Assembly (NCBI GenBank): GCA_029860075.1
Contig: JAOUBX010000012.1
Span: 3,654 to 67,653 of the forward strand
Reading direction: 5' to 3'
From: Deltaproteobacteria bacterium
GTDB taxonomy: Bacteria > Desulfobacterota > JADFVX01
DNA: 64,000 bases
The translations under genes were made by a program, and so were the position numbers. The notes under the pieces are model-generated. The model made no database searches. It was not told the origin of the DNA and was given only the letters and a program-made list of their open reading frames with translations. Within the stretch, counting starts at the first letter, position 1. Each line of letters opens with the position of its first letter. Positions 19,795 through 36,496 of this stretch are shown piece after piece.

Positions 19795-19918
19795 TGTTCA
19801 AGCGAAAATAGGGTTACCCCTAAAGTTGAAGGCCTATGCCTCTGAGAAGGTGTCCCCGTTAAATTATCAGACAAAAACCATGCAGGAAAAGGGTAAAAAT
19901 GGAAGGAGCAGAAATTAA

Positions 19919-21690: not shown

Positions 21691-21809
21691 GCCCGCTCCA
21701 TGCAGGGGGGCAAAAAATCGGTTAAAATATGAGTACGGGCACAGATTAAGACCGGACGATTGGCTTTGCTTGTTCATAGCCCGTCCTTGCGCGGAGACTT
21801 ACTGAAAGG

Positions 21810-22409
21810 ATGCAGAAAATTAAACTCACAAAACATGAACTCAAGCGTCATAAGGAGAATTTAAGGCGTTATAACCGCTTTCTCCCCACCCTCACGGCCA
21901 AAAAACAGCAGCTTCAGCGTGAGATTGTAAGAATCAGGGGGGAGATAAAGGGGCTGGAAAGTACCTTTAAAGAAGAAAGGGCAGGTATCATGCCCTGGGT
22001 TTCACTTCTCGCTGAAGATGTGGGTCTTGAAAAAATGGTGCGTTGCAAAGGGATCAGGCTGGGGGCGGATAATATTGCCGGTGTGGATATTCCCGGGTTT
22101 GAAGGTGTTGATCTTGCCGTGACTGACTATGATCTCCTGTCAACGCCCCTCTGGGTTGATTGGGCGATAGAAAAGCTGGGGAGACTCATGGTACTGGATG
22201 CCCGGATCGACGTGCTAAAAAAGCAGATAGCCCTTCTTGCGCAGGAGTTGCTTGTGACGACCCAGAGAGTCAACCTTTTCGAAAAGGTAAAAATTCCGGA
22301 GGCCATCGACGCCATCAGAAGAATAGCGATTCATCTTGGCGACCAGCAGACGGCGGCTGTTGTCTGGGCCAAAATGGCGAAGAAAAAATTGCAGGTACAG
22401 GGCATATGA
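21810..22409 (+). CDS. atpD: V-type ATP synthase subunit D
   Basis: 199-aa coiled-coil protein with the conserved N-terminal pattern of V/A-type D (central rotor stalk). Confidence 0.8.
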   Translation: MQKIKLTKHELKRHKENLRRYNRFLPTLTAKKQQLQREIVRIRGEIKGLESTFKEERAGIMPWVSLLAEDVGLEKMVRCKGIRLGADNIAGVDIPGFEGVDLAVTDYDLLSTPLWVDWAIEKLGRLMVLDARIDVLKKQIALLAQELLVTTQRVNLFEKVKIPEAIDAIRRIAIHLGDQQTAAVVWAKMAKKKLQVQGI

Positions 22410-24262
22410 TTGTTGCCATGAAAAAAATAACCTTTCTCATGAGGCCGCGCTGGTCTTATGAAGCGACTGCCCTTCTCAGGGAGGCAGGCGCGCTGCATTT
22501 AAGTTGCCCCCTTACTCCCGCAAGCGAGCATATTGCAACCATTGAAAATAAAATGAAAACCCTTGAAAAGGCGATAGCTATTCTCCAAAAGGCGGGGGCA
22601 GGGGAAGGGGAAGGGGAAGGGGAAGGGAGAAAGAGTTTTACCATCGAAGAAGCGCAAGTCCTGACGGGACGGATTATTGACCTTGATGAAGCGGCCTGTG
22701 AAGTGGCGAGGGATTTGGAGAAACTTGAAAGTGAATACGAGAGGGTTGTCCGCTGGGGGGATTTCAATCACGCTGACATAGAGGCCCTTGAAAAGGCCGG
22801 CATCGATGTGACGCTTTTTTCATGCCCTCAAGAGGCCCTTGAAAAGTTGCCGGCCGGCTTAAACGGGCATGTTATCAATCGGATCGGCGGCAGGTGCTTT
22901 GTGGTGGTTTTCTCTAAAGGTGAAAGACCGCAAATTCCTTTCAGTAAGGTAGAGGCGCCTCATCGTTCTTTCAAAGAGATAGGGCAATTGATTGATGAAA
23001 ATAAGGAGAGACTTTTAGCTGTTAATGAAGCGTTGAAGGGACTTGCAGGCGCATTGCCGCTATTGATGGAAATATTGGAGGCTTTTAGGGATAAGCTTGA
23101 ATTTGAGAAGGTGCGCCGGGGAATGGGGGAAGAGGACGGCATTGCCTATGTTAAAGGTTTTGTCCCCGCTTGCCGTCTTGAAGTGTTGAAAAAACTGGCC
23201 TCCCAAGAGCGTTGGGGCATTGTTGTCGAGGAACCGGGAGAGGAAGATGATGTGCCCACACTTATCAGGCATTCCAGGTTATCGGCGCTTTTTCAGCCGG
23301 TCATGTCTTTTATGGGCATAACACCGGGCTACTTTGAGTATGATACCAATGCCGTCTTCCTTATCTTCTTTTCCCTCTTTTTTGCCATGATTGTCGGTGA
23401 TGCAGGTTATGGTCTGTTACTGCTTGTTGCCACCTTTGCGCTTCAGCGCTTTAACGCGTCTTTCTCCGGTCATTTGCAGAAGCTTTCTTATCTCCTTTCC
23501 CTGTCGACACTGGTTTGGGGCGCTGTAACGGGTAACTGGTTCGGTGTATCAGGGGCGGCATTGCCTTTGCTTGAAGGCCTGATTATACCGGGCCTTGATT
23601 CCTTCCATGCCGCCGCCGACTCTGTAGTGATGGAATTATGTTTCTTTATCGCCCTCCTCCATCTCTCCGTTGCACATATCTGGAAGGCCCTCCTCTCCTA
23701 TCCCTCTCTAAGGGTATGGGGTGAAAGCGGATGGGTGATCATGCTGACAGGCATTTATTTTCTTGTGAAAGGGCTCATACTCAAAAGTGCTTCTCTTCCC
23801 ATGTCCATGATTTTCGTATTGTCAGGCTTTGCCATGATCATTCTTTTCGGCATGCAGGGACGGGGCGGTTTTTTAAAGGGAACCCTGAAGGGCCTGAAAT
23901 CACTTCCCCTGACGGCCCTTGACGGTGTGGGCGGGCTATCCAATATAGTTTCCTACTTAAGGCTTTTCGCCGTAGGGATGGCGTCGAAAGAGGTGGCGGC
24001 GGCTTTTAACGCAATGGCGCTTGAGAGGGGTTTTCATGATGTAATATCTATCTTCATTGCTGCGCTCATTCTTATTTTCGGTCACGGAGTCAATATGCTT
24101 TTAATTGCCATGTCCGTTATTGTTCACGGTATAAGATTAAATATCCTCGAATATTCGGGACATATGAATATAGAATGGTCGGGCATTCCTTATAAACCCT
24201 TTGGTCGTTCCCCGAAAGAGAAGGAGCAGGAATTGCTTTCGAAAGCGTTAATGGAGGTGTGA
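22406..24262 (+). CDS. atpI: V-type ATP synthase subunit I (a-subunit)
   Basis: The start (MIVAMKKITFL) overlaps the atpD stop (ATGA). It has a soluble N-terminal ~330 aa and a C-terminal multi-TM domain. It contains an in-frame (GGGGAA)4 repeat encoding EGEGEGEG. Confidence 0.8.
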   Translation: MIVAMKKITFLMRPRWSYEATALLREAGALHLSCPLTPASEHIATIENKMKTLEKAIAILQKAGAGEGEGEGEGRKSFTIEEAQVLTGRIIDLDEAACEVARDLEKLESEYERVVRWGDFNHADIEALEKAGIDVTLFSCPQEALEKLPAGLNGHVINRIGGRCFVVVFSKGERPQIPFSKVEAPHRSFKEIGQLIDENKERLLAVNEALKGLAGALPLLMEILEAFRDKLEFEKVRRGMGEEDGIAYVKGFVPACRLEVLKKLASQERWGIVVEEPGEEDDVPTLIRHSRLSALFQPVMSFMGITPGYFEYDTNAVFLIFFSLFFAMIVGDAGYGLLLLVATFALQRFNASFSGHLQKLSYLLSLSTLVWGAVTGNWFGVSGAALPLLEGLIIPGLDSFHAAADSVVMELCFFIALLHLSVAHIWKALLSYPSLRVWGESGWVIMLTGIYFLVKGLILKSASLPMSMIFVLSGFAMIILFGMQGRGGFLKGTLKGLKSLPLTALDGVGGLSNIVSYLRLFAVGMASKEVAAAFNAMALERGFHDVISIFIAALILIFGHGVNMLLIAMSVIVHGIRLNILEYSGHMNIEWSGIPYKPFGRSPKEKEQELLSKALMEV

Positions 24263-24263
24263 T

Positions 24264-24704
24264 GTGAATATTGTCGATATATTAGGTGATACCGGTTTTG
24301 TTATGGCCCTTTGTCTTCCGGCGCTGGGCTCTGTCCTCGGCACAAGCGCGGCAGGAATGGCGGCACTTGGTGCATGGAAAAAGTGCTTCCTTGCAAACAG
24401 GACGGCCCCATTCATCATGGTTGCTTTTGCCGGAGCGCCTCTTTCGCAAACCATTTACGGCATGATCCTTATGAATGCCCTTATGGGCGCCGGGGGGACG
24501 GCAGCAGATGTCAAGTTCAGTGCAGGCCTCTTTGGTGGTCTTGCCATGGGAGCTTCAGCCTGGTTACAGGGTAAGGCCGGGGCACTTGCTTCCGATGCGC
24601 TGTCCGAATCGGAAAAAGGGTTCGGAAACTACATCATGGTTATCGGTATTATTGAGACAGTGGCCCTCTTCGTTATGGTATTTCTCATGACGGCCCTTAA
24701 GTAG
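24264..24704 (+). CDS. atpK: V-type ATP synthase subunit K (proteolipid c-subunit)
   Basis: GTG start one nt after the atpI stop. It has Gly/Ala-rich TM hairpins with the conserved ion-binding Glu (GIIETVALF). Confidence 0.8.
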   Translation: MNIVDILGDTGFVMALCLPALGSVLGTSAAGMAALGAWKKCFLANRTAPFIMVAFAGAPLSQTIYGMILMNALMGAGGTAADVKFSAGLFGGLAMGASAWLQGKAGALASDALSESEKGFGNYIMVIGIIETVALFVMVFLMTALK

Positions 24705-24887
24705 TTTTCATCGGTCAAGGGTGCTTTTTCGCAATCTCTACGTCAATCTTCGGCTTTGCTTGTGCCATGTACAGTAGTACAACTCGGCGAAACCCTTGAT
24801 TTCCTTGACCTTGCAAAAAATCCCTCATTTCCGAATTGAAAACAAAGTTTCATTTATTATAGTTTCCGGATGGACACTAAGTAAAAG
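24697..24887. mobile_element. MITE-like repeat, copy 1. It has a degenerate 3' terminal inverted repeat and carries a ~42-nt internal insertion.
   Basis: About 85-90% identical to 34987-35129 over ~140 nt. It begins at the atpK stop codon. It shares the 5' end TTAAgTAGTTTTCATCGGTCAAGGGTGC and the 3' end GATGGACACTAAgTAA with copy 2. Confidence 0.45.
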
Positions 24888-25255
24888 AGAACGCATATTC
24901 AAAGATGCTCTAAAAAGCCGCAGGAAGCGCCTAAAGGCTCGAAAAATCCGGGCCATACCGGCAGCTTGCAGGGGCGCTTGTGCTGTAAACCATGAACTGC
25001 CGCCGCTTCCAGCTTCAACTGAGGTTGTGTGGCGAGATTATGGGCGGGTCTTTGTCCTGATGGCAGTCTTTTTTCACTCGCTTCCCCTCTCCCGGAATGT
25101 CCTTCCGAAAAATTAAGAGGCTTTTTCCGGCTTCCAATCTCCCGGATAATGAAAGAATATGTCAAAAAAAAGGGGTAGACTGGAAGGGAATAAAGTTATA
25201 ATATATGAAGGTTTTACTGTCTTGTTACTATCACTGTTTGAATAAAGGAAATGCT

Positions 25256-25852
25256 ATGTCAAATAAATGTCTATCTTCCGGCGGACCCGGCGCTTTAGCC
25301 GTCCTTTTCTCCCTTCTTATGTTTATCTCCCCGGTCATCGCTGCTGCTGCGCCAGCCCAAAAGGTGAAAAAGGAGCTTAAGGCCGGCTCTTCAGTTCCTG
25401 CGTCTGCCGGAAATGCAAGAAAAGGGATTGAACCTCTCAGGAAGTTATCTGCCATTGAGGTTTTCAGGAACAAAAAGCTGCTTGAAAAAACGATCAAGGA
25501 CCTCGATGCATACAGGGTAATGCTCAAGTACCTTGTCAGTGAACATCATGAGGACAGTCAGCGTCTTTTGCTGCTTGAAGAGACGGATAATTACATTGAT
25601 AAAAATGTCGATCCTTTAATAGAAGATAATCTTAATTATAATGATGAAACCTTTAACCTTGTCGTTACCTTGAGGTTTTATAAGGCCTATGCTTATTTTG
25701 AAGCAGAGAAGTACGACAAGTATCAGGAAATATTGACGGATATGAAACGGGTCCACGGCACGGAATTTTTGAGTATAGCCATAAGGCCCTTTGGAGAGAA
25801 ATATAAAACCATTGGTGATGCTGTAAAAAATTTAAGAGGGATGATTCTTTAG
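25256..25852 (+). CDS. Hypothetical secreted protein
   Basis: Signal peptide when the start is taken at MSNKCLSS (RBS AAGGAAA). No recognisable domain. Confidence 0.4.
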   Translation: MSNKCLSSGGPGALAVLFSLLMFISPVIAAAAPAQKVKKELKAGSSVPASAGNARKGIEPLRKLSAIEVFRNKKLLEKTIKDLDAYRVMLKYLVSEHHEDSQRLLLLEETDNYIDKNVDPLIEDNLNYNDETFNLVVTLRFYKAYAYFEAEKYDKYQEILTDMKRVHGTEFLSIAIRPFGEKYKTIGDAVKNLRGMIL

Positions 25853-25863
25853 AGGTATAAAAA

Positions 25864-26553
25864 ATGGAATTTAGTTATCGATTTTTTCACGCATTTAATT
25901 CATCTGAGTCAGGGTATGTTTTTATGTGGATACTGCTTTTAAGCGGTATTGTTGCCATGGCTATTGTTATTGAAAGGTTGGCCTTTCTCACCTTAAAGTC
26001 AGGGAAAAGGAGCGCTTCACAATTAGATAATGTGATTTCCGTGGTGGCCGGCGGCGATATGAAAGGCGGTCTTGCCCTTTGCGCCGGGGCAAGTAAAAAA
26101 GCTGTTTTCCAGGTCCTGGAAAATGTGCTGGCAAGCTCTCCGTCAGGAAGTGATCAGGTGCAGAATGTGGTTGATGAATCGATGCTAAAAGTCATTCCTC
26201 ACCTTGAAAAGAGAACGACTTTCCTGGCGACGATAGGTAATATTGCAACCTTGATCGGCCTTATGGGAACCATTTACGGCCTTATTCTTTCTTTTTCCGC
26301 CGTAGGTAAGCCCGGTATCGATGCCGTAGAAAAATCGACACTGCTTGCGTCGGGAATTGCCGCGGCCATGAGCACCACTTTTATGGGCCTGCTTGTCGCC
26401 ATCCCGTCAATCGGCATGTATGCTTATTTGAAATCCAAAACCCAGATGATAGTTGATGAAATTGATCTTTATACGCTGAAGCTTTCCAATGCCCTGCTCA
26501 TAAGCCAGGAAAAAAGAGTTGAAAAAAATTATGACGATTCAAGCCGGGTTTAA
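25864..26553 (+). CDS. MotA/TolQ/ExbB proton-channel family protein
   Basis: 229 aa with three TM helices. It has the conserved TM2/TM3 block (GLMGTIYGLILSF ... LLASGIAAAMSTTFMGL). Confidence 0.8.
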   Translation: MEFSYRFFHAFNSSESGYVFMWILLLSGIVAMAIVIERLAFLTLKSGKRSASQLDNVISVVAGGDMKGGLALCAGASKKAVFQVLENVLASSPSGSDQVQNVVDESMLKVIPHLEKRTTFLATIGNIATLIGLMGTIYGLILSFSAVGKPGIDAVEKSTLLASGIAAAMSTTFMGLLVAIPSIGMYAYLKSKTQMIVDEIDLYTLKLSNALLISQEKRVEKNYDDSSRV

Positions 26554-26616
26554 TCCTTTGCAGGGGAAAGGCCCGCCAATAGCATACCGCTAATCTGACC
26601 TTCGGAAAAATATGAA

Positions 26617-27936
26617 ATGTATTTTATTAATGAACTGCTAAGTGGATTTAAACCGGGGCAGGAGAGCTTTGTCTTTATGTGGGGCCTCGCTCTTGTTGCT
26701 TTTATTGCCGTAGTGATTAATGTTGAGAGATGGTTGAGGATCAAGAAGCTGACCGACGTTAATGCCCTGGCCTTTATTGATGAAGTTTGTCATCTTATTG
26801 ATGAACAAAAGCATGATCAGGCTCTCAAAATTTGTGACCTGGGCGGAGAGAGAGCGCTTGCAGGAATTGCAGGCGCCGCTATCAGACAGTCCCTTCGCTT
26901 TCCTCACCTTGTCAAAAGCGCTATGGAAGAGGAGTTCCTTAAGGTTATTCCCTCTATGGACCGCAGGTTAAACCTCATCTTTGTTATCAGCAACCTCTCT
27001 ACCATGATAGGGCTTATGGGTACCATATGGGGGCTAATTATCGCTTTTTCAGCGATTAGCAATCCCGGTGTTGCAGCCGTTGAAAAAAGCTCTCTCCTTG
27101 CGGCCGGTGTGTCGACAGCCATGAACACAACCCTCGTTGGCCTTACCATCAGTATCCCCTGTCTTCTTTCTTTCTTTATCTTCAGAAACTGGGTTGACAG
27201 AAAAACAGTTGAGCTTGATCGTTATGCTCTTCATCTTTTACGCGTACTTTCTCCCGGAGTAACGGCCGTAAAGAATTATAAGTTTTCCAGCAAAAGAATC
27301 AGTGAGGATATCGATCATGAACCGAATATCGGTCCCATGATGAGCCTCATTGTCATTCTTATTCCCCTTCTTCTTTCTTCTGCCGAATTTGTCAAGGTGG
27401 GCGCCATAGAGCTTCATGTTCCGGACAATAAAAAACAGGAACAGCCCAAGACTGAAGAGAAAGATGAAAAGGAGAGCATCTATCTCGGTCTTAAGCTGAA
27501 GATAGGGAAAGAGGGATTTTATCTTTCACACTATTTCAAGGATGAAGGGGCCGTTAATGAAGGGGGAGATGGCAGTGAACATTCCCTTCCCGATATTCCC
27601 ATGGCGGACGGCAGGTATGATTTTAAGGTTCTTCAGAAAAAGCTCGCTGAAATTAAAAGGTTGACTCTCCTGTCTCTTGCCGCGGTGGAATATGATGTCG
27701 ATGAAGATGCGCCCCTCGATGAGTCATATGTTCTTTTTGCAAAGGTTGCCGGCAGTGAAAGCCTGAAAGGTTTTCTTGAGGACCGGGACCAGGTAAAAAT
27801 ATCGGCTGAAAAGGATGTCCCTTACCAGACAATTATTTCTGTTATGGATTCGGCGCGGGAAGTTCAGGCGAAAAGCGGAAAAATACCGCTCTTTCCATCC
27901 ATATCATTTGCAGGGAGTGTGACACCAGGGCAATGA
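26617..27936 (+). CDS. MotA/TolQ/ExbB-family protein with a C-terminal ExbD/TolR-like extension (fusion)
   Basis: Residues 1-200 form an ExbB-like three-TM core (GLMGTIWGLIIAF, LLAAGVSTAMNTTLVGL). Residues ~235-439 resemble ExbD: a TM segment EPNIGPMMSLIVILIPLLL, in which the usually conserved Asp is replaced by Ser, and a C-terminal periplasmic block DVPYQTIISVMDSARE. Confidence 0.65.
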   Translation: MYFINELLSGFKPGQESFVFMWGLALVAFIAVVINVERWLRIKKLTDVNALAFIDEVCHLIDEQKHDQALKICDLGGERALAGIAGAAIRQSLRFPHLVKSAMEEEFLKVIPSMDRRLNLIFVISNLSTMIGLMGTIWGLIIAFSAISNPGVAAVEKSSLLAAGVSTAMNTTLVGLTISIPCLLSFFIFRNWVDRKTVELDRYALHLLRVLSPGVTAVKNYKFSSKRISEDIDHEPNIGPMMSLIVILIPLLLSSAEFVKVGAIELHVPDNKKQEQPKTEEKDEKESIYLGLKLKIGKEGFYLSHYFKDEGAVNEGGDGSEHSLPDIPMADGRYDFKVLQKKLAEIKRLTLLSLAAVEYDVDEDAPLDESYVLFAKVAGSESLKGFLEDRDQVKISAEKDVPYQTIISVMDSAREVQAKSGKIPLFPSISFAGSVTPGQ

Positions 27937-28433
27937 AACGCGGACGCAGAAGAAAAATGGGGTCTCAGGGGGACCACAATGCAAAATTGAACATTACATC
28001 CATGATGGATATATTTATTATTATTCTTGTCTTTTTGCTTAAAGTTTTTTCAACTCAGGGCCAGCTCGTAACGCCGGCTGCCGGCCTTACCTTGCCCACA
28101 TCAACCATAGAAAGTCCGGCCAGGGAGTCTTTGTCCGTCAAGATCCTGGCAGACAAGATACTGGTTGAGGATGAGGTGGTTCTTAATAGTGTGGATTATG
28201 AAAAAACGGTAAAAGATGAATCAAAGGGTCTCATCAAATCATTATACAATACGCTGGTTCTTCATGCCAAAGAGGCTAAAGCGGTATCTGAAAAAGTAGA
28301 AAGCAGCTTTTCAGGTGAGATAACTATTCATGGTGATAAGGGTATCCCTTATAATCTGCTGACTCGCGTTATGTATACGTGCACAAAAGCAGGCTACCCT
28401 GTTATGAAGCTCCTTGTTTACAGGGAGGAATAA
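27933..28433 (+). CDS. Biopolymer transporter ExbD/TolR family
   Basis: Single TM segment with the conserved Asp (ITSMMDIFIIILVFLL). The periplasmic domain has an ExbD-like C-terminal block. The start overlaps the preceding stop. Confidence 0.75.
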   Translation: MKRGRRRKMGSQGDHNAKLNITSMMDIFIIILVFLLKVFSTQGQLVTPAAGLTLPTSTIESPARESLSVKILADKILVEDEVVLNSVDYEKTVKDESKGLIKSLYNTLVLHAKEAKAVSEKVESSFSGEITIHGDKGIPYNLLTRVMYTCTKAGYPVMKLLVYREE

Positions 28434-28485
28434 TGGATCTTTTTTTCGTCTATAAGGAGGTTTACCTCTGAAAAACAGTGATAAA

Positions 28486-29673
28486 TTGGCCTTTCCGTCA
28501 GGACCTTTTCCTAATGAGTTTCGTGACAGGGCTTTCGGCAAGCCTGACAAGCCCTTTGTTGTTGTGCTCCTCTTTACCCTGTTCCTCGTTGGCGGACTGA
28601 CATTTATCATGTCTTTACGTAAACCGCCGGCTGTTGACAAGAAACATATCGTAAAGATACAAAACAGGTATGCAAAACTGGTTCTTGATGCATTTGAGAT
28701 AGAAAAAAGAAAAAAAATGAAGAAAGAGGTAAAACCTCCTTCAGAGGCGCTTAAAAAAACGGCTCAAGTTCCAGAATTGAAAAAAGAAGAACCTGAGGTA
28801 GAGAAACAAAAGGAAGAAATAAAAATAGAAATTCCAAAAGTTATAGAAAGAAAAGTAAAAAAATATGAGATCCGCAAGGAAAAGATCGAAATTGCCGAAT
28901 TGGAAAAAGAAATAAAGATCGAAACATTGCCCGATCTTCCTGATATTCTCGATAAAAAAAGCAAGCGCTATGGTGAAAGGCAGGACTCCGATGAAATAGG
29001 GCTGGACCCTGATCTTGATAAGGGTTTTAATCTTGCTGACCAGGGGCCTCATATTGACGTTTCAAGATCCAGCAGGTACGGCAGTGGCGGAAACAGGGGC
29101 AGCGGGGGACTCGATTACGAAGAAGACGAGACAAGTACCTTGCAGAGTAAGGAGCCTCAGATAGATACAAGAACGGTTAAACGGTATAAATCCAAAAGGG
29201 GCGCTTCGAAAGATTCCGGTACCGGATCGCTTGTTGCTGATATGAATGACAGGAAAGTTGTTCTGGCAAAAAAAGCGCCTCAGACAAAAGTGCTTGTGAA
29301 AAAAAGATACGGAAGAGAAAGTTACAAAAGGCGTGCTTCAAGGGAAAAAGAGAGCGCTTCTATTGCAATGAAAGAAAAGGGCGCCATTTTGAAAAAAGAG
29401 GGTAAAATGGCTTCTCTTCCCGAGAGGGCAAATATCCAGAATCTTGAAGCATGCGTTGATCCCAATGAAGAAAAAATGCTCAAGAAGAAGATTGTAACCC
29501 ATGTTGGCGATGCCGCTACCTGCAGTGATAAGTGGGGAAGTTACGCTTATCTCGGCAGGGAAATGTTTTCGACCCTTGAAGTGAGGTTTGTCAGCTCGGG
29601 AAAAAGAAGATACAACCGGTGTGAGGCCCTTAACAGGGCGCTCCAGTGCCTTATCAATAAAAATAAGAGGTGA
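28486..29673 (+). CDS. Atypical TonB/TolA-like bitopic energy-transducer candidate (Lys/Glu-rich linker, Cys-containing C-terminal domain)
   Basis: N-terminal TM anchor (FVVVLLFTLFLVGGLTFI) and a long K/E/P-rich repeat region. The C-terminal domain has 4 Cys and no canonical TonB C-terminal motif. The start codon is unclear: the RBS AAGGAGG at 28454-28460 precedes an in-frame CTG at 28468, and a TTG lies at 28486. Confidence 0.4.
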   Translation: MAFPSGPFPNEFRDRAFGKPDKPFVVVLLFTLFLVGGLTFIMSLRKPPAVDKKHIVKIQNRYAKLVLDAFEIEKRKKMKKEVKPPSEALKKTAQVPELKKEEPEVEKQKEEIKIEIPKVIERKVKKYEIRKEKIEIAELEKEIKIETLPDLPDILDKKSKRYGERQDSDEIGLDPDLDKGFNLADQGPHIDVSRSSRYGSGGNRGSGGLDYEEDETSTLQSKEPQIDTRTVKRYKSKRGASKDSGTGSLVADMNDRKVVLAKKAPQTKVLVKKRYGRESYKRRASREKESASIAMKEKGAILKKEGKMASLPERANIQNLEACVDPNEEKMLKKKIVTHVGDAATCSDKWGSYAYLGREMFSTLEVRFVSSGKRRYNRCEALNRALQCLINKNKR

Positions 29674-29676
29674 TTC

Positions 29677-31779
29677 ATGAAATTAAAGTTTGTCCTAAAT
29701 CTGCTATTGCTCTCAATGCTCTTTACGGGCACATCATTTGCTGCAAAGGGTGAACCCTCCCGGCATTGGGATGCCTTTCTCGATGTAGGCTACAGATTTA
29801 CCTTGCTTCCCGGTGATGAGCTGGAAGACCTTATAAAGGGTGAAGGCAAGAGGTATGGCCAGAGCCTTTCTCAATATGTGGCCATATTGGAATCACAAAT
29901 CGGGGGCAGGAACGCTGTCGGAACTTCCGGAGATATGAAGTTTCTTCCGCCTGATACCTTTAGGCGTGTTGCAGTAGCCCATCTCATCCTCTACCTGAAA
30001 AGCGGAAAAAAGGAACATCTCCATAAGGCTGAAAAAAAGATTTCCGTATTGGCCGGGAAAAGAAAAACACCAAGAATCATATTCTGGCATAATTTTATTC
30101 TCGCACATCAGAACCTGGTAAAGAGAGAGTCACTTGCCTTTACACACCATGTATTTAGAATCTGGAATGATGTTATTATGGAACTGGAAAAAGCCCAATC
30201 CATGCTGGGCACTAATATCGGCATTACCGGCTTTAATACAAGCCTTCCTTATCTCTATGAAAATATGGTTTTTTTAATCCTTAATCATGGCATTGTAGAA
30301 GAAAAGCTGGCCGATTTGCACCCTCTGGGCGTTATTATCTGGTCAATGAAGGATCGCCTTGAAAAGGACAAAGGTTATTACCAGCTGGCTGAAAGCGTCT
30401 GGAACCGCATGTATGGTCTCACATCGGATAATTTTAATGTCAATTATGCCATGGCCCTTCTCGAAGGTGAAACAAGGTGGCTCGATTTCGAAGCGTCAAA
30501 GTCACCGGCGGCGGCAAAGAAGCGCTTCCAGGAGGCTGAAAATTATTTCCAGTATGCGCTAAAGTGGGCTGATACGAGGAAGGGACAGGCTGCCATACTG
30601 TCGAGACTGATGGAGTCTATGACAAAGGTCTTGAACGATATGGTTCGGGGCAGAAAGAATGTTTCTCATGAGTTTTTCAGAGAGATTCCCGATTATTCCT
30701 TGTCGCTTACAGCAAGCGCAAGAACACTTTTCCTGGAAATGTCGAATGAAGATCTTATACATAATGGTGGCTGGCAGGTAGAAGGTTTTGCTGCCAGGGA
30801 CCACTATATTGATGCCATGCACTCAATCTGGCTTAATTCTTTACAGCTTGACATACTCATTGCAAGATACTACAGGCGTAGCATCAATAATGTAAAGAAG
30901 GGGCAGGAAAAAATTCATTTTATAGATCTGGCTTCACAACCCATGTTTGATTATCTTGATTTTTTTGAGGAGTTTACGCAGAACGGGCATACACCTATCG
31001 TTCCTGACAATGCGTATTTTTATGCATCCTACTTTGCTTCCGAACTGGCTGAGCTTCACCGGATGAAGGCAAATTATACGGGCGATGTGCTTGAGTATAA
31101 TATGGCTTTTATCAGACAACTCCAGGCTATCGAGATCTATCCTTTTGATGTGATTGGTGTCCTCAATCTCACCATGCAGGTATCTCAGGATGGAACATTG
31201 AATAAATATATTTCAAACGTATGGCCTATTGCCGAGAGAATTCCCGAGTCCGAAACGATTAAAAGGTGGCAGACAAAGAATAAGCTTCCCTTTATTAATG
31301 AAGTTAACAGTCTAAAGTATCTTGTTCCTGAGACGATGAGGTCTGCTCCGTCTATTATAGGCTTGCAGACAGGAGGGTCTTCCAGGAAAAGACTTATTGA
31401 GGATACCATATTACTGGCCCAGTTGATTAAACTTATCCTGCAAAGTGATGGCGCAAAAAAGATTAATCAGCTTATGGATGAAATCTCCCTTGAACTAAAC
31501 AAGGGGCTCACGCTTAAAAAGGCATTGGAAAGAAGCTTGCCAAAAGACATGATGGATAAAGCCAAGCCTGTTATTGCGCTGCTTAATTCATGTGATTACA
31601 GCAAGCTCAAAAAAGCGCTCTTTAGAAACCCTGAAAATGAGTATCATGCTCTTTTCAGGAGTTTTTACCATGAGAAGGATGAGAAGGAACTGCGTCATAT
31701 GGTACTGTTGAGAGCTTACAGGGAGAGCTGGAGCCTTCAACAGGAAATGGCAAAGAAATACAGGAAGGAAGTAAAATAA
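29677..31779 (+). CDS. Hypothetical secreted protein (700 aa, predicted alpha-helical, no recognisable domain)
   Basis: Signal peptide (LLLLSMLFTGTSFA). It starts 4 nt after the preceding stop, so it is probably co-transcribed. Confidence 0.5.
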   Translation: MKLKFVLNLLLLSMLFTGTSFAAKGEPSRHWDAFLDVGYRFTLLPGDELEDLIKGEGKRYGQSLSQYVAILESQIGGRNAVGTSGDMKFLPPDTFRRVAVAHLILYLKSGKKEHLHKAEKKISVLAGKRKTPRIIFWHNFILAHQNLVKRESLAFTHHVFRIWNDVIMELEKAQSMLGTNIGITGFNTSLPYLYENMVFLILNHGIVEEKLADLHPLGVIIWSMKDRLEKDKGYYQLAESVWNRMYGLTSDNFNVNYAMALLEGETRWLDFEASKSPAAAKKRFQEAENYFQYALKWADTRKGQAAILSRLMESMTKVLNDMVRGRKNVSHEFFREIPDYSLSLTASARTLFLEMSNEDLIHNGGWQVEGFAARDHYIDAMHSIWLNSLQLDILIARYYRRSINNVKKGQEKIHFIDLASQPMFDYLDFFEEFTQNGHTPIVPDNAYFYASYFASELAELHRMKANYTGDVLEYNMAFIRQLQAIEIYPFDVIGVLNLTMQVSQDGTLNKYISNVWPIAERIPESETIKRWQTKNKLPFINEVNSLKYLVPETMRSAPSIIGLQTGGSSRKRLIEDTILLAQLIKLILQSDGAKKINQLMDEISLELNKGLTLKKALERSLPKDMMDKAKPVIALLNSCDYSKLKKALFRNPENEYHALFRSFYHEKDEKELRHMVLLRAYRESWSLQQEMAKKYRKEVK

Positions 31780-32138
31780 ATGAAAAGGGGATGACTAAGC
31801 CAAGTCATCCCTTTTTTTATGGTGAAACAAATCCTTTTCCGATCCTGCTTTCTTGCGCAAGCCCCGGATTTGACAGTAATGAGCCGGGTGATTGCTTAAG
31901 TTGCAATGTAAAGTCAGGATTTTTTGAGAGTGTTGCCAAAGCAATCGCTTGCATTCTCTCTTTATGCCAGGTTCCCTTTCCCTGAATCCCCGTCCGGTCC
32001 ATTTCCCCCGTGTATCGGGATAAATGGGGAGGCTGGTCTTTGCGCTCATGCTCGCTATTGGCGTGGAGCGCAGCCCGAAAAGACAAAAAAGTACATCTTT
32101 CGCCTGTTTCGGGATTATCTGTCGGAGATGAGCACAAA

Positions 32139-33083
32139 CTATTTCTTAATTTGGGAGAGTTTGCTTTTTACCGCTCTGATTCGCGGGTCACCGGATTTTG
32201 CATGGGTGAGAAAGGCATTAAGCGCATCTTCAATTTTATACTCTTTTAGAATATCGGTAAAAAGAAAAGCCTTGTAGTAATAGGCGTCAGCATTTTTTCT
32301 GTCAAGGGCGATGACTTTATTAAAGTCAGCGAGCGCTTGATTCTTCATACCTTTTTTATAATAGGAGTGTGCGCGGTTCATATAGAGTTCAGGGTCATCA
32401 GAATCGAGTTCTATTGCTTTGGAATAATCTTCTATGGCATTGCCGTACCTGCCTCTTTGATAATAGCTAAAACCTCTGTTTGAATAGGCCGCTATTTTAT
32501 CGGGATCAATCTCTATTGCCCTGCTGTAATCGAGAATTGCCTTAAAATGGTCTTTTAATTCATCATGGGCGATTCCCCTGTTTACATAGGCGCCGTAATA
32601 TACGGGCTTCATATATAAAGCCGTATCATAATCCGCAATGGCTTCTTTATATTTATCCATTTCCAGGTAGGCGTTTCCCCGATTATAGTATATGACGGGA
32701 TTATCAATCCTGAAATCGAGATACTTTGTATAATCATTAACGGCTTTTCTGTGTTTTTTTAACTCCGTATAAGTGAGGGCTCTTTTATAATACAGGTCGG
32801 GGTCTTTGGGGTTTATTTCTATGGCCCTGGTCAGGTCCTTCTCGGCAGCAGCGTATTTTTCCAGTTGAATATAGGCGTCACTTCGTTCCTGATAGGCTTT
32901 AAGATTCCCCGGCTTTTTTTTAATAGCTTTTGACAGTTTCTTGATTTTTTTATTCAGATTTTGAATCATCTCCTCTTTACTGCCGGCCGTTGTTGTGCCG
33001 CACCCTGCCGTATAAAGCACAGTAAGCAGGCAGAGAGAACAGGCAATGAAGAGCCTTTTGCTAATAATTTGATTTGTCATATG
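32139..33083 (-). CDS. Tetratricopeptide-repeat lipoprotein
   Basis: Start chosen at MTNQII. Lipobox (YTAGCG). It has multiple TPR units (e.g. AYYNRGNAYLEMDKYKEAIADYDTAL). Confidence 0.7.
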   Translation of the reverse strand, partial: HMTNQIISKRLFIACSLCLLTVLYTAGCGTTTAGSKEEMIQNLNKKIKKLSKAIKKKPGNLKAYQERSDAYIQLEKYAAAEKDLTRAIEINPKDPDLYYKRALTYTELKKHRKAVNDYTKYLDFRIDNPVIYYNRGNAYLEMDKYKEAIADYDTALYMKPVYYGAYVNRGIAHDELKDHFKAILDYSRAIEIDPDKIAAYSNRGFSYYQRGRYGNAIEDYSKAIELDSDDPELYMNRAHSYYKKGMKNQALADFNKVIALDRKNADAYYYKAFLFTDILKEYKIEDALNAFLTHAKSGDPRIRAVKSKLSQIKK

Positions 33084-33374
33084 AGTCCCGTATTTTATTG
33101 ACGTTTTTAAAAAGAACATGGATATCATAAAATGAAGAAATCTTCAAGGGATTATATGGAAAAGCCTGATTCCCTGCAAGAAAACTTTTATTCTATTTGT
33201 TTGGAAGTAGTGTATTATTAAAGCGTTCGAAAAAATTCTTATTGTTCAAGATACGAGGAGAAATCTTAACGATCTCTCACTACCTTCGAAACAAGTATTC
33301 CTCCTTTTACTCGAAATGACACACTGCTGCAATTGCCTAATCGGACAACAGTGAAGGAAAGATGATAATAAAAT

Positions 33375-33581
33375 ATGGATGAATTCAAAATACATGGAGA
33401 ATATATCGAATTGGTTAAACTCCTTAAAGCGGCTGCCTGGTGCGATACGGGGGGGATGGCAAAACTGGCTGTTTCTGATGGTCTGGTCAAGGTTGACGGA
33501 CAGGTGGAACTGAGAAAAGGACGTAAAATTAAGAAGGGACAGATAGTTACTTTCCAACAATACTCAGTTCATATTGTCTGA
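33375..33581 (+). CDS. S4-domain RNA-binding protein (YbcJ family)
   Basis: 68 aa with a conserved YbcJ-like block (GEYIELVKLLKAAAWCDTGGMAKLAVSDGLVKVDGQVELRKGRKI). Confidence 0.8.
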   Translation: MDEFKIHGEYIELVKLLKAAAWCDTGGMAKLAVSDGLVKVDGQVELRKGRKIKKGQIVTFQQYSVHIV

Positions 33582-33621
33582 TAAATTGATAAAAAAAAAG
33601 ATATGACTGTAGATAGAGCGT

Positions 33622-33852
33622 TTATCCACAGTTTGAACGTTCGCCTGTGGATATCATGGTGCCAAGTGAGAGCTTAAATAATATAATAAGAGACGTTCCT
33701 CTCTTTTGATGCCTCTGCCATGTCTAACCTGTTGAAATATTAGCGTAATTTTATTTATATCGGTGTGCTTAAAAAATAGGCAATCTGCTCTGAGTGGCGG
33801 TTTGATGGTAGCTTGGAAGTTAAAATAAAAAAAAACAGACAACTTATCCACA
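33622..33852. promoter_or_regulatory. Cluster of three DnaA boxes in an AT-rich convergent intergenic spacer
   Basis: TTATCCACA at 33622-33630 (+) and again at 33844-33852 (+). The reverse complement of ATATCCACA lies at 33646-33654 (-). AT-rich tracts flank them. No ORF and no obvious promoter target: the spacer lies between two gene 3' ends. Confidence 0.35.
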
Positions 33853-33888
33853 GATTTTGTGTAAAAAGTTTGTAAGTTCCCTCTTTAT

Positions 33889-34845
33889 CTATAAATTTTG
33901 TTTTTTAGCATTATTATGATCTTCTTTGGGCGCTGATTTTTCTTTTGACAACGGGACAGGGATTCCAAGCCCTTCATCAATAATCTTGCGAAAGAACTCC
34001 CCCTCCGGCGTGTCAATCCCTTCTTCCCTGGCCAGTTGACGGGCTTTTTCCCAAATTGTTTCATGGGACAATCCATTTTTATGCACTTCCATATAAAGCC
34101 TGTTTTTAAAATAGCCGAATTTGACAGGAATGTTTACAATTTTAACAGGCATTCCCCGGTAGGCCTTATGGAATAGCCATTTAATATTTTCCCTGGAAAG
34201 TCTTATACAGCCGAGGCTTACCTTTTTGCCTATGCTGGCGGCTTTATTTGTGCCATGAATACCGTAACCTTCAAGGTCCAATTGAATCCAGTAGCGGCCA
34301 AGTGGATTCCTGGCGCCCGGTGGAACTGCCATTGGGAGATAGGGGAAAAATTTTCTCGAAGTCTTCGGTGGAAACCATATGGGATCTTTAAGCTTTTCAG
34401 TCACCCTGAAGTTGCCTGTTGGTGTTTCATATCCGGAACGGCCTATTCCTATGGGAAATGTTCTTATTTGAGTGCTGTCGTAATTTGCCGGCTCAAAAAA
34501 ATAGAGTCTCAGTTCAGCCAGATTAATTAATATCCCTTCATCCATAACAACAGGCAATATCCATGAAGTCGGTATAATGATCTCTTCTCCTGAAACAGGT
34601 CTGTTTGCGTCAATCCGGGGATTGGCTTCTCTAATTTCAATATGACCAACATCATAGACCCTGGCAATTTCCGACAGAGATTTACTCCCGGCATAAATAA
34701 GATTGATGGTTTCACCTATGAGGGGAGGTGCTGATTCATCATTGATTCTATGGATCAAGAAGGATGCCTTGTCAGCAAAACATGTATTAACAAACAGTAT
34801 ATTTATGGTGATAAAAATTAGTAATTGAATCCCCGGCCTGTACAT
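33889..34845 (-). CDS. L,D-transpeptidase (YkuD/ErfK family) with an N-terminal LysM-like domain
   Basis: Start chosen at MYRPGIQLLIF (signal peptide). The catalytic block is HGTN...SLGCIRL. The longer ORF to 34983 is probably an over-extension into the repeat element. Confidence 0.8.
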   Translation of the reverse strand: MYRPGIQLLIFITINILFVNTCFADKASFLIHRINDESAPPLIGETINLIYAGSKSLSEIARVYDVGHIEIREANPRIDANRPVSGEEIIIPTSWILPVVMDEGILINLAELRLYFFEPANYDSTQIRTFPIGIGRSGYETPTGNFRVTEKLKDPIWFPPKTSRKFFPYLPMAVPPGARNPLGRYWIQLDLEGYGIHGTNKAASIGKKVSLGCIRLSRENIKWLFHKAYRGMPVKIVNIPVKFGYFKNRLYMEVHKNGLSHETIWEKARQLAREEGIDTPEGEFFRKIIDEGLGIPVPLSKEKSAPKEDHNNAKKQNL

Positions 34846-34986
34846 TTCCCGCCCTTTATGGGGGGAAGCGGGGAACCTCCCTTGTGCATTCATAGCCCGC
34901 TGCCTGCGGTGAGGTGGCTCGTTAAATAGCGTGTAAAATAAATTAAATGCCATACCTTTTGTTCTGAAGAAAAGTTTTTTCACTCT

Positions 34987-35129
34987 TTAATTAGTTTTCA
35001 TCGGTCAAGGGTGCTTTTTCGCAATCTCTGCGTCAATCTTCAGATTTGCTTGACCTTGCAAAAAATCCCTCCTTTCCAAATTGAAAACAAAGTTTGATCC
35101 ACCATAGTTGACCGATGGACACTAATTAA
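34987..35129. mobile_element. MITE-like element, copy 2 (143 bp, ~22-bp imperfect terminal inverted repeats, TA-rich flanking repeat)
   Basis: The 5' end TTAATTAGTTTTCATCGGTCAA matches the reverse complement of the 3' end (TTAATTAGTGTCCATCGGTCAA), 20 of 22 positions. It has no coding capacity. The flanking direct repeat is TAATTA. Confidence 0.5.
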
Positions 35130-35517
35130 GTTTATCCCGCTGTTGCTAAAAAAATTTAAAAAGAAAACCTTCTATCTTTCCCTCAATGGTTAGCGTATTC
35201 TTATAATGGAAAGAATAACAGAAATTGAATATTTTTCATTAAACTTATGATGTTTTTCAGCTCTTTATTTATGAAATTGTTTGTGACTGAATCCCCGGCA
35301 CTTGTCTTTTCCCCCGTTGATGGAGATAAAGCGGCCGTCTGTCAACCTGCTTATCGTTCTTTATTTTCGGCGGGCAGTTGATTTTAGGGATCCCATTCCT
35401 GTGAATAATAAATAAACAATCTCATTTTTTTATAGATACTCTTTATAGGACATGCTTCATTATGGTATAAAAGGTAAAAATGGATTGATATTTTTCCGAA
35501 AATGCAGGTAAGACTTT

Positions 35518-35880
35518 ATGGGTTTTAAGTTTTTGTCATTTGTTTTTGCATACCTTGCCGCAGGCGCCTTTTCCCGGTTCCCGCAGCTTGAACCGTCATC
35601 TTTGCTTATTCAGGGTATGGCGCTTTGTTATATTCTTGGCGGTTTTACACTTTCATTTGCCCTCTGGACAAAAAAAGGGTGGGTACTCTATTCCTTTATC
35701 TTCTGGTCTCTTTTATCAATTGCCTTTATGTTTGTTTTACAGCAGGGGCAATTGCGGATGTCATGGTCCGAATTTGCCGCTTCCCTTGCCACCATTGTTT
35801 TAATCCAGTTTTTACTTGGTCTCTATATTAAAAGATCCATGGCGCTGGAAAAGGGTATGGAAGATACTCTAAAGGACTAA
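35518..35880 (+). CDS. Hypothetical small membrane protein (4 predicted TM)
   Basis: 120 aa, hydrophobic throughout, upstream of the receiver-domain gene. Confidence 0.4.
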   Translation: MGFKFLSFVFAYLAAGAFSRFPQLEPSSLLIQGMALCYILGGFTLSFALWTKKGWVLYSFIFWSLLSIAFMFVLQQGQLRMSWSEFAASLATIVLIQFLLGLYIKRSMALEKGMEDTLKD

Positions 35881-36056
35881 GGTCTATTACCGCAAATACC
35901 GTCGCTCCATCACCTTCAGGAAGTAAAATCATCCTTCCCTCCTGAAAACTGTTTCCCTCTGAAAGCGTGCAATGAATTTGTTGTTGAAAAAAGTTGAATG
36001 ATCTGTAAAATGTTTAGACTTTTTGAAAGAGAAATCGTATACTTGGTGCCACAAAG

Positions 36057-36464: not shown

Positions 36465-36496
36465 TTATCCCCTTACGCTTGTTTTGGTAACCGAGA

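Follow-up and report, generated by a model that had tools for sequence, protein, structure and literature searches.

Which envelope machine is driven by the ExbB/ExbD-type motor genes of this locus? We analysed the 64-kb stretch of DNA that carries them (hereafter the window), for which a sequence-only reading had proposed an uncharacterised ion-driven envelope machine. The results supported this proposal: searches for TonB and TolA domains were negative, and the module was conserved as a unit. We therefore favour, with reasonable though far from complete confidence, a previously undescribed family of PMF-driven, Tol-Pal/TonB-like trans-envelope force-transduction systems with unrelated output components, carried by sediment bacteria that are uncultured.

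Operon layout and motor genes

The sequence-only reading had placed an ExbB gene, an ExbB-ExbD fusion, an ExbD gene and genes for a 395-aa and a 700-aa protein in this order. All of these ORFs were found where it had located them, and the order was borne out, with Pfam identifying the motor genes. Its extent of the cluster held for these genes but not for the start at ExbB, as the operon begins one gene earlier with p215 (25205–25852, + strand), a small secreted, probably helical protein whose translation may in fact begin at an internal ATG (25253). The successive gaps and overlaps between the genes (11, 63, −4, 34 and 3 nt) indicate that 25205–31779 (+) is one operon, from p215 through the 700-aa protein (p700); the free ExbD gene starts 4 nt inside the end of the fusion gene, and p700 starts 3 nt past the transducer stop. 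A terminator-like hairpin with a 9-bp stem (31788–31811, no strand assigned) lies between p700 and a convergent TPR gene; it matches no more than the consensus, and sites of this kind were not more numerous here than in shuffled sequence.

The first motor gene (25864–26553, +) encodes an ExbB/TolQ-like A subunit of 229 aa with three TM helices (Pfam MotA_ExbB, E = 1.5e-25). Its top NCBIfam match was TolQ at 70 bits, far under the 221-bit cut-off, and its GLMGTIYGL and GIAAAMSTT segments keep what we take to be the two pore-lining Thr positions of E. coli TolQ. The fusion (26617–27936, +) is a single ORF of 439 aa matching both MotA_ExbB (1.3e-20) and ExbD (4.5e-10), in which some 30 aa of linker join an ExbB-like domain with three TM helices to an ExbD-like TM helix (aa 241–259, nt 27337–27393), itself followed by an ExbD-like periplasmic domain of enlarged size. 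Where the proton-binding Asp would be, the fusion has Ser243 (nt 27343–27345). The uninterrupted ORF was also present in L002–L005 by alignment and in L036 by its gene table, and all five aligned fusions (window and L002–L005) carried GPxMSLIxILIPLLL, with Ser and not Asp. The free ExbD (27933–28433, +; 166 aa; Pfam ExbD, 9.1e-16) keeps the TM Asp as D26 (nt 28008–28010), within the helix ITSMMDIFIIILVFLL.

The motor of the window's subtype (type A) thus comprises two modules each of the A and the B type, with one A fused to one B. These probably assemble into a hetero-oligomer, for example of four ExbB, one fusion and one free ExbD, in which only one Asp could be protonated and A and B would be covalently tethered. 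Such a tether between ExbB and ExbD is hard to square with continuous rotation, which counts against the favoured reading. All B subunits of type-B loci carry the TM Asp, in the shared helix 'WLFSFTDLAFLLLISLS'. The closest solved relatives of the motor were TolQ and ExbB, with TolQ the top PDB match.

The transducer and its C-terminal domain

The gene after the free ExbD (28468–29673, +) encodes a bitopic force-transducer-like protein of 401 aa from CTG 28468, or 395 aa from TTG 28486. The CTG start, proposed from the sequence alone, gained support when the related loci L036 and L035 were compared. In the window, a Shine-Dalgarno sequence AAGGAGG (28454–28460, +) is flanked by a TAA stop at 28453 and the in-frame CTG; it is kept in L036 (AAGGAGG) and L035 (GGGGGA), 7 nt before the homologous start in each. 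In the DNA alignment this start position was CTG in L036 and TTG, the called start, in L035, and the window's TTG 28486 was TTT in L036.

The topology was shown to be TolA/TonB-like: a cytoplasmic N-terminus precedes a single TM helix, from which an extended low-complexity linker leads to a C-terminal domain (CTD) that is small and globular. The claimed TM anchor was confirmed at residues 24–42 (nt 28555–28611). The short cytoplasmic N-terminus carries AFGKP, a variant of the YGxG motif found at the N-terminus of 76 of the 104 family members. The linker, of about 270 aa, had been described as Lys/Glu/Pro-rich; this was correct for Lys (17.8%) and Glu (11.9%) but not for Pro, which reached only 5.2% in the window copy against a family median of 13.8%. 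All 104 members combine the CTD with a single TM helix and a Pro-rich linker, and Pfam, NCBIfam and PADLOC searches of the window transducer returned no match. TonB and TolA dock on their motors through a TM His/SHLS motif. Two further features count against the reading favoured above: the TM helix of the window transducer has neither His nor SHLS, and the ExbD alignment of the type-B B subunit is confined to its TM helix.

The CTD (29428–29670, +; about 80 aa) contains the four Cys noted earlier, at residues 323, 346, 379 and 388. The first and third were invariant (104/104); 85 members had both the second and the fourth, 15 had neither, and 4 had only one of the two. Because the Cys co-vary in two pairs, they probably form two disulfides, which would place the CTD in the periplasm. 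The AF2 model (pLDDT 72.9) predicted a helix, three strands and a final helix. A search of 1.84 billion representatives (E ≤ 1e-3) assigned about 175 clusters, made at 50% identity, to the CTD family, and the domain lay at the extreme C-terminus in every one of the 150 clusters listed.

Profile and structure searches found neither a TonB C-terminal domain nor TolA domain III in the 395-aa protein, in line with the claim that it has no TonB C-terminal motif. No Pfam family, TonB_C, TonB_2, TolA and TolA_bind_tri included, was matched above noise by any of the 104 members (NCBIfam was likewise negative for the window copy); hhalign of the CTD against TonB and TolA C-terminal domains gave a probability of 0.14%; and neither protein appeared when PDB sequences were searched with the CTD profile or the PDB with the AF2 model by Foldseek.

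Partner proteins and conservation of the module

The last gene of the operon (29677–31779, +) had been read as a secreted 700-aa protein without recognisable domains, which agrees with our results: p700 has a signal peptide, none of 28 family members gave a Pfam match above noise, and it had no NCBIfam match and no sequence relative in the PDB. Its AF2 model (pLDDT 86.8, pTM 0.81) contained about 30 helices and no strands, so that p700 is confidently predicted to be an alpha-solenoid. Foldseek against the PDB yielded generic TPR-type matches only (E ≥ 4e-3, TM ≤ 0.22) and no specific structural relative.

At the other end of the operon, p215 has a signal-peptide-like hydrophobic segment (residues 23–41), only sub-threshold TPR-like Pfam matches, no NCBIfam match and no OmpA-like peptidoglycan-binding domain by Pfam. 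Its homologues head the module in at least 24 loci; those of Desulfuromonadales-type (type-B) loci are lipoproteins (LSGC, AVGC, FSGC and similar lipoboxes), and those of the window's subtype have an ordinary signal peptide, so that p215 is a lipoprotein in the majority of lineages. The convergent TPR lipoprotein noted earlier was confirmed at 32139–33128 (−), with a lipobox-like LYTAGC and matches to several TPR Pfam models (down to 4e-45). Close orthologues occupied the same convergent position in L002, L003, L004 and L006 (phmmer 3e-41 to 1e-76); the gene was absent from type-B loci, and most loci lacked it. It is an accessory component specific to type A.

We found p700 in 39 loci, all from MAGs or metagenomes (Desulfuromonadales, Desulfobacterales and unclassified), with the transducer gene directly upstream in 37 of the 38 having upstream DNA. 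Of the 29 related loci whose upstream DNA reached far enough, 26 had the same gene set, p215 and ExbB included, and p700 identity among related loci fell to 28%; the locus is therefore not a chance arrangement. The gene-neighbourhood check proposed with the original reading thus showed a module whose genes stay together in many lineages. It was carried by 26 species-level genomes, to which further metagenomic loci were added, and only five genes, p215 included, formed the conserved core. Genes for an outer-membrane barrel, an adhesin or a secretin were not conserved with it in the related loci.

In the window, the flanks of the module are housekeeping genes, with a V-ATPase upstream as in its syntenic relative L036. 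As claimed, no TonB-dependent receptor, TolB or Pal gene adjoins the module; neither these nor OmpA-family genes were found among ORFs of at least 150 aa across the 64 kb, in a scan that left out ORF 62267–62809 and ORFs nested inside annotated genes.

Some loci lack motor genes of their own. L006 carries p215, p700 and the TPR gene with neither transducer nor motor; p700 thus does not always come with a dedicated motor, which weighs against the favoured reading, although a complete module (L005) is present elsewhere in this MAG. In L032, L033 and L037, where the transducer is present without motor genes, an SxxxH anchor replaces the YGxG type. Residues 1–57 of the L032 transducer shared 44% identity (E = 2e-16) with the anchor of a canonical TolA, whose gene belongs to the complete tolQRAB-pal-cpoB operon next to the module. 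This TolA-type anchor argues that the transducer acts as a motor-coupled force transducer. It also suggests that the CTD, p700 and p215 form an output module, which different anchors would plug into different TolQ/ExbB-type motors.

These components can be arranged in a working model. The motor, probably 5:2 by analogy with solved ExbBD and TolQR, would drive the TM anchor of the transducer by a force or conformational cycle. The linker would span the periplasm, and the disulfide-stapled CTD would engage p700, which would act with the p215 lipoprotein at the outer membrane or cell wall, joined in the window's subtype by the convergent TPR lipoprotein. Such a system would be an energised, Tol-Pal-like connection from the inner membrane to the outer envelope. 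Most likely it serves to maintain or remodel the envelope, and not to drive import through receptors.

Candidate machines and known systems compared

The locus could instead be a paralogous or degenerate Tol-Pal system constricting the outer membrane at division, with the CTD a remote TolA III, p700 in place of TolB and p215 in place of Pal. We consider this unlikely, although the two systems share much of their logic. Both combine an inner-membrane TolQ/ExbB-type channel and Asp-bearing single-TM partners with a bitopic transducer (long linker, small C-terminal domain), a soluble periplasmic partner and a lipoprotein, to which type A adds a TPR protein as in Tol-Pal. Both ExbB domains scored highest against TolQ in NCBIfam, the motor-less variants place a TolA-like anchor beside tolQR, and the predicted order of helix, three strands and helix presumably resembles that of TolA III. 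However, the CTD was not recognisable as TolA III in any family member, p700 is a predicted alpha-solenoid and not a beta-propeller like TolB, and the lipoprotein lacks an OmpA-like domain and is encoded first. The window transducer also differs in its missing SHLS/His motif. L032 has a complete canonical Tol-Pal operon as well as the module, so the module adds to Tol-Pal and does not replace it.

A highly divergent TonB system, whose CTD has drifted past recognition and which energises receptors encoded elsewhere, is quite improbable. It would account for ExbB and ExbD genes next to a protein of TonB-like topology, and the 64-kb window shows only part of the genome. Against it stand the negative TonB searches, the absence of receptor genes from the window and from the inspected flanks of related loci (Pfam gene tables), and a strict linkage to p700 that has no counterpart in Ton systems. 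The terminal strand of the TonB C-terminal domain pairs with TonB boxes, whereas the predicted CTD ends in a helix. L002 has a separate, canonical TonB-ExbB-ExbD cluster about 2 kb downstream, and the module can therefore hardly be just the TonB system of its genome. Extra genes do occur in Ton operons, and TtpC of Vibrio is ExbB-like. The Vibrio TonB2 operon has six genes, ttpB-ttpC-exbB-exbD-tonB2-ttpD, ttpD being a TPR gene (PMC6957404). It resembles type A in its small first gene, two ExbB-family genes (one enlarged), ExbD, transducer and TPR-like protein. In contrast to the module, TonB2 has a TonB C-terminal domain and receptors; neither p215 nor p700 matched a Pfam or NCBIfam family, and the enlarged ExbB of the module is a fusion to ExbD and not an N-terminal extension.

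Still less probable is a motor that powers surface motility or secretion, as in Agl-Glt/Nfs or GldLM/T9SS, within an apparatus whose other parts are encoded elsewhere. Agl-Glt of Myxococcus likewise joins a TolQR-type motor to TonB-like bitopic proteins and TPR lipoproteins, and the TPR lipoprotein of the window weakly matched the NCBIfam models GltE (1.8e-8) and Tgl (1.8e-11). Those matches are generic to TPRs and far under the model cut-offs, the transducer and p700 had no Glt-family or other NCBIfam match, no outer-membrane component was conserved, and most loci lack the TPR lipoprotein. A Zorya-like anti-phage defence on a MotAB/ExbBD-type motor is highly implausible, as the weak PADLOC ZorA matches on the ExbB domains (about 1e-5 to 3e-3) were limited to the common MotA/ExbB channel region, PADLOC was silent on the other proteins with no ZorB, ZorC or ZorD equivalents, the extra components are all secreted or periplasmic and not cytoplasmic effectors, and the flanks are housekeeping genes syntenic with a relative. 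With TonB/TolA, PADLOC and Glt-family results all negative or weak and generic, the earlier view that the composition is unlike canonical TonB, Tol-Pal, Zorya or Agl systems was upheld.

For the favoured reading, a new family of trans-envelope force-transduction systems, a precedent exists in the vWA-type motor-driven force transducers, a recently recognised class that is neither TonB nor TolA (Williams-Jones et al. 2025, PMC12204202). These have TolA/TonB topology with a C-terminal domain unrelated to either, and their genes adjoin tolQ-like genes, heterologous tolR-like pairs and a TPR gene (PMC12204202). The module shares this topology, a non-TonB/TolA C-terminal domain and the tolQ/tolR-like and TPR neighbours. 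It differs in its 80-aa, four-Cys alpha/beta CTD, which is not a vWA fold (no Pfam match; model), in its obligate 700-aa partner and in its taxa, Desulfuromonadales/Desulfobacterales MAGs compared with PVC, Bacteroidetes and Proteobacteria for the vWA type.

The operon and its motor genes

The ORFs found at the locus agreed with the map of an earlier sequence-only reading, except that the operon starts one gene before the first one listed there. The first gene encodes p215, a 215-aa protein with a signal-peptide-like N-terminus in a hydropathy scan (25205–25852). It is followed by ExbB (25864–26553; Pfam MotA_ExbB, 1.5e-25; three TM helices by hydropathy scan), a 439-aa ExbB-ExbD fusion (26617–27936; MotA_ExbB, 1.3e-20, and ExbD, 4.5e-10; 3+1 TM helices), a free ExbD (27933–28433; ExbD, 9.1e-16; one TM helix), a 395-aa transducer (28486–29673; no Pfam match; one TM helix at residues 24–42 by hydropathy scan) and p700, a 700-aa protein (29677–31779; signal-peptide-like N-terminus; Pfam match to bDLD2 only, sub-threshold). 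The Pfam matches on all three motor ORFs bore out the Exb-type assignment of that reading, and the convergent TPR lipoprotein it described was recovered as a multi-TPR gene (32139–33128, minus strand) with a signal-peptide-like N-terminus and a lipobox-like TAGC.

The free ExbD carries the TM Asp (D26) of an ExbB/ExbD pair. TolQ was the nearest NCBIfam model for both ExbB domains (70 and 50 bits versus a cut-off of 221), and TolR scored 30 bits versus a cut-off of 127. By profile score, the motor genes are clearly related to TolQ and TolR at the family level, below the equivalog cut-offs. The ExbB-ExbD fusion is real: its ORF is uninterrupted in six independent assemblies, namely the window, four related loci by alignment (L002–L005) and L036 by gene table. 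The C-terminus of ExbB and the N-terminus of ExbD are both cytoplasmic, so the topology of the fusion is consistent. The fused ExbD-like helix reads GPxMSLIxILIPLLL in 5/5 aligned sequences, with Ser in place of Asp. An Asp at this position is essential in ExbD, TolR and MotB. When read against E. coli TolQ, the two pore-lining Thr positions are kept in both ExbB domains. We infer that the stator is hetero-oligomeric, that only one of its B helices can be protonated, and that ~30 residues tether A to B covalently, which would restrict continuous rotation. Full-text search returned, within the collection covered, no paper on ExbB-ExbD, TolQ-TolR or MotA-MotB fusions. A conserved fusion with an Asp-to-Ser B helix represents a natural tethered stator, which could inform the debate on rotation versus piston-like movement in Ton/Tol motors.

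The genes surrounding the module in the window are of a housekeeping kind, such as a V/A-type ATPase operon and genes for an RND efflux pump, GGDEF proteins and RNase R. The upstream V-ATPase genes were rejected as part of the module, being common only to the window and its closest relative, L036. This operon (13693–24704) is broken between its B (16679–18067) and D (21810–22409) subunit genes by a PMT_2-family glycosyltransferase gene (18178–19794) and two ORFs (19919–21690), and L036 has a PMT_2 gene at the same position on the opposite strand. Two genes for cell-wall enzymes lie near the locus: a YkuD L,D-transpeptidase gene (33889–34983, minus strand) adjoins the TPR lipoprotein gene, an arrangement not kept in L002, and a Peptidase_M74-like murein endopeptidase gene (9978–10781, minus strand) lies further upstream. 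A second TPR-only protein, of 251 aa, is encoded at 59250–60005, a position unrelated to the module. An Rfam scan of 24000–36500 gave no match, the sole tRNA gene found (Leu, 51929–52015) is distant from the locus, and promoter- and terminator-like sites were no more numerous than in shuffled sequence.

The transducer, its anchors and its C-terminal domain

The TM helix of the window transducer, FVVVLLFTLFLVGGLTFIM, contains no His, and the SHLS motif of TonB is absent. Among the N-terminal anchors of 104 family members, YGxG was present in 76 and the SxxxH pattern in 6, and none had both; genuine TolA-type SxxxH anchors amounted to ~5 of the 104 transducers and came from motor-less loci. Three loci (L032, L033 and L037) carry the transducer and p700 behind p180, a p215 counterpart, without motor genes of their own. 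In L032 (9355–17892) the module is convergent to, and abuts, a complete canonical tolQ-tolR-tolA-tolB-pal-cpoB operon, and the first 57 residues of its transducer, P0140, are 44% identical and 79% similar to the neighbouring TolA anchor (E=2e-16), SxxxH included. The same C-terminal domain (CTD) is therefore borne on two kinds of anchor, one accompanied by dedicated ExbB-like and B-subunit genes and the other TolA-type without a dedicated motor, the pattern expected of a modular force transducer docking on TolQ/ExbB-type motors. These anchor sequences are what one expects if the transducer is motor-coupled and its anchor modular. Such a natural anchor swap makes the way a transducer chooses its motor a directly testable question.

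The linker, previously described as Lys/Glu/Pro-rich, is indeed rich in Lys (17.8%) and Glu (11.9%), but not in Pro (5.2%, versus a median of 13.8% in the transducer family). By alignment, the sole strongly conserved part of the transducer is its last ~80 residues, the CTD. A word-indexed search with the CTD profile gave short fragments only, and the full family became visible by exhaustive search of 1.84 billion representatives, which returned 175 clusters, 85 of them at E<=1e-10. In the 150 matches listed, the CTD lies at the extreme C-terminus of proteins mostly of 300–630 aa. The architecture extends to distant members, in which a YGxG...P motif at the N-terminus precedes one TM helix, a Pro-rich linker and the CTD, and in the few contexts read, hmmsearch included, their neighbours were the same. 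Within the CTD, the first and third Cys are invariant in the 104 members, and the second and fourth occur together in 85, are jointly missing from 15 and disagree in 4. This co-variation would be expected from two disulfides, C1-C3 and C2-C4, and implies a periplasmic CTD, consistent with an N-in single-TM topology.

In its AF2 model the CTD has three strands between an initial and a final helix (pLDDT 72.9). Structures were modelled for the CTD and p700, and one of the pair has moderate confidence. No TonB C-terminal motif had been noted in the sequence-only reading, and profile and structure searches agreed. The transducer had no NCBIfam match, and Pfam found no TonB_C (PF03544), TonB_2 (PF13103) or TolA model in the 104 members. 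With hmmsearch, the CTD profile recovered no TonB or TolA from the PDB sequences, and Foldseek of the CTD model against PDB gave a best E of 0.73 with TonB and TolA absent among the matches listed. Comparison by hhalign with a small, three-sequence TonB/TolA CTD alignment, a weak template, gave a probability of 0.14%, so the negative rests mainly on Pfam over the 104 members. Jackhmmer and phmmer with an E. coli TonB CTD query matched nothing in the fetched loci, missing even the canonical TonB of L002.

The start codon of the transducer was compared by DNA-level alignment with two related loci, L035 and L036. In the transducer frame, a TAA stop (28453) precedes AAGGAGG (28454–28460) and, at 7-nt spacing, an in-frame CTG at 28468; the TTG at 28486 lies 25 nt from this SD. 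L036 keeps AAGGAGG, the 7 nt and the in-frame CTG, and has TTT at the position of the window's TTG. L035 has TTG exactly at the position of the window's CTG, and P0003 (MKHNNDLL...) is called from that codon. Since the homologous start position is conserved and the downstream TTG is not, the alignment supports translation from CTG 28468, the start proposed in the sequence-only reading, to a 401-aa product. A 12-codon upstream ORF, MDLFFVYKEVYL, spans 28433–28471. It shares bases with the exbD stop at its ATG (TAATG) and with the proposed CTG start at its TGA (CTGA), an arrangement by which the transducer and ExbD could be translationally coupled. A comparable TAATG mini-ORF is present in L035, whereas in L036 165 nt are inserted here.

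p700, p215 and the distribution of the module

The AF2 model of p700 (pLDDT 86.8, pTM 0.81) comprises ~30 helices and nothing else. Foldseek against PDB returned only generic TPR-type superhelices (E>=4e-3, TM<=0.22), no member among 28 had an above-noise Pfam match, and there was neither a PDB sequence relative nor an NCBIfam match, in keeping with the earlier description of a protein without recognisable domains. For a protein with this predicted structure, the best description is a new alpha-solenoid of the periplasm. Assignment as bDLD2 was rejected as noise (E=0.004, 18 bits versus a 25-bit cut-off, 1/28 members), and a match to a Campylobacter flagellar scaffold (9hmf_K; rank 37, TM 0.12) was rejected as a generic TPR match. 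Invariant parts include the mature N-terminus (PSxxWDALLDVGYRF) and many aromatic and acidic residues. The N-terminal stretch (29677–29830, residues ~25–45), with W31, V37, R40, F41 and P45 invariant, is among the most conserved, and it may, speculatively, serve as a box for the transducer CTD in the manner of the TonB box or TolB N-terminus.

Word-indexed searches returned 6 clusters for the 395-aa protein, the window's own included, and 29 for p700. When each GTDB species was represented by one genome, p700 was detected in 26 of them, each a MAG of Desulfuromonadales, Desulfobacterales or unclassified 'Deltaproteobacteria/Proteobacteria'; all data on the module come from MAGs and metagenomes. 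Because the carriers are all uncultured sediment bacteria, any function would call for heterologous study.

Profile searches across the fetched loci revealed two arrangements. Type A (the window, L002–L005, L036 and partial L035) has the order p215, ExbB, ExbB-ExbD fusion, ExbD, transducer and p700, with a convergent TPR lipoprotein where downstream DNA exists. Type B (L001, L007–L027 and others) has a ~180-aa lipoprotein, an ExbB-like protein, a ~156-aa B subunit, a 390–614-aa transducer and p700. The type-B B subunit was rejected as a full ExbD, hhalign having aligned the TM helix only, and is ExbD-like in that helix only. Homologues of p215, which had no OmpA domain by Pfam and no NCBIfam match, carry a lipobox in nearly all type-B loci and an ordinary signal peptide in type A, which has the separate TPR lipoprotein instead.

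Gene neighbourhood was strongly conserved. The transducer gene lies directly 5' of p700 in 37/38 loci with upstream DNA (the exception being L006), p215 and ExbB are present in 26/29 loci having sufficient upstream sequence, and all-against-all clustering of flanking ORFs limited cross-locus conservation to the five module genes. L006 (7070–10779) holds a second p215-p700-TPR lipoprotein copy without a motor or transducer gene and belongs to the same MAG as L005, which holds a complete module. L031 (1067–6809) is rearranged, in the order OMP_b-brl gene, B subunit, transducer, p700, p215-like and ExbB-like, and is the sole locus with an outer-membrane barrel gene beside the module. In 8 Desulfuromonadales loci (L001, there at 4410–6575, and seven others) the module is directly preceded by a gene for a Prc/Peptidase_S41 tail-specific protease, and in 10 a Memo-family gene lies downstream. 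Both were rejected as functional partners, being limited to these 8–10 close loci, and probably reflect lineage synteny.

Proposed mechanism and comparison with known systems

These comparisons establish motor identity, operon structure, conservation, architecture and anchor modularity. The interpretation with the best support is a PMF-driven system that transduces force across the envelope and works like Tol-Pal. The motor, presumably of 5:2 stoichiometry, would act on the transducer, whose CTD may engage periplasmic p700; p700 would in turn work with the lipoprotein, possibly through contact with p215, in a putative envelope-maintenance role. We consider it rather unlikely that the module forms an independent class of 5:2-motor envelope machine, in which a disulfide-stapled CTD, the 700-aa solenoid and a lipoprotein make up a Tol-Pal analogue from unrelated folds. 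Under that proposal, the window's covalent fusion with an Asp-less B helix would preclude continuous rotation and imply a limited-stroke or oscillating mechanism.

Tol-Pal and the Vibrio TonB2 operon, which has six genes (PMC6957404), are the nearest known layouts, and a Tol-Pal paralogue is the most plausible rival to the force-transduction reading. However, no TolA domain III was found, and the TolB and Pal folds are absent: p700 is all-alpha where TolB is a beta-propeller, p215 has no OmpA domain, and no PD40 or OmpA domain was matched in the window. Tol-Pal itself coexists with the module in L032. A divergent TonB system whose receptors are encoded elsewhere would share the ExbB/ExbD pair and TM Asp, but the transducer family has no TonB_C or TonB_2 and the window copy no SHLS His, p700 is an obligate partner, and a canonical TonB cluster coexists in L002. 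The sequence-only reading had noted no adjacent gene for a TonB-dependent receptor, TolB or Pal; across the 64-kb window, none was encoded by an ORF of 150 aa or longer, nor was an OmpA-family protein (the scan covering ORFs other than 62267–62809 and those nested within annotated genes), and no receptor flanked the related loci with inspected Pfam gene tables. An Agl-Glt-like motility or secretion motor would share the motor type, but conserved outer-membrane parts are absent and GltA-K or Nfs components were not found by NCBIfam Glt models, which had no match in p395 or p700; the TPR lipoprotein gave only generic matches (GltE, 33.8 bits versus 225; Tgl, 43.9 versus 225). Zorya-like defence is least compatible, since PADLOC matches to ZorA were weak (E>=1e-5) and confined to the channel region, with nothing for the other genes. 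Zorya comprises ZorA with a long C-terminal tail, peptidoglycan-binding ZorB and ZorC/D or ZorE effectors, and equivalents of ZorB, ZorC and ZorD are absent here.

The vWA force transducers (PMC12204202) place a vWA C-terminal domain on a TolA/TonB topology; no vWA Pfam match occurred in the 104 members, and the 80-aa CTD is instead predicted as helix, three strands and helix. The Vibrio TonB2 system (Ttp) combines TtpB, TtpC and TtpD with a TonB2 protein bearing TonB_C; the comparison covered TonB_C, which the transducer family lacks, and p215 and p700 had no Pfam or NCBIfam match. Neither the CTD, p700 nor the fusion was described in Pfam, NCBIfam, PADLOC or the literature searched. The locus appears to lack the defining features of the systems compared except the shared ExbB/ExbD-type motor, in line with the earlier suggestion of an uncharacterised ion-driven envelope machine, and among Ton/Tol-like systems with 5:2 motors we class the module as a new family.

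Motors of the 5:2 ExbBD/TolQR/MotAB type are the sole known energy route from the inner membrane to the outer envelope in diderm bacteria. Few of their outputs are understood: TonB import, Tol-Pal, flagella, gliding and T9SS, and Zorya. With the module, these would gain a further family of output, in which the CTD is a small, searchable defined domain and p700 a concrete candidate target of the transducer.
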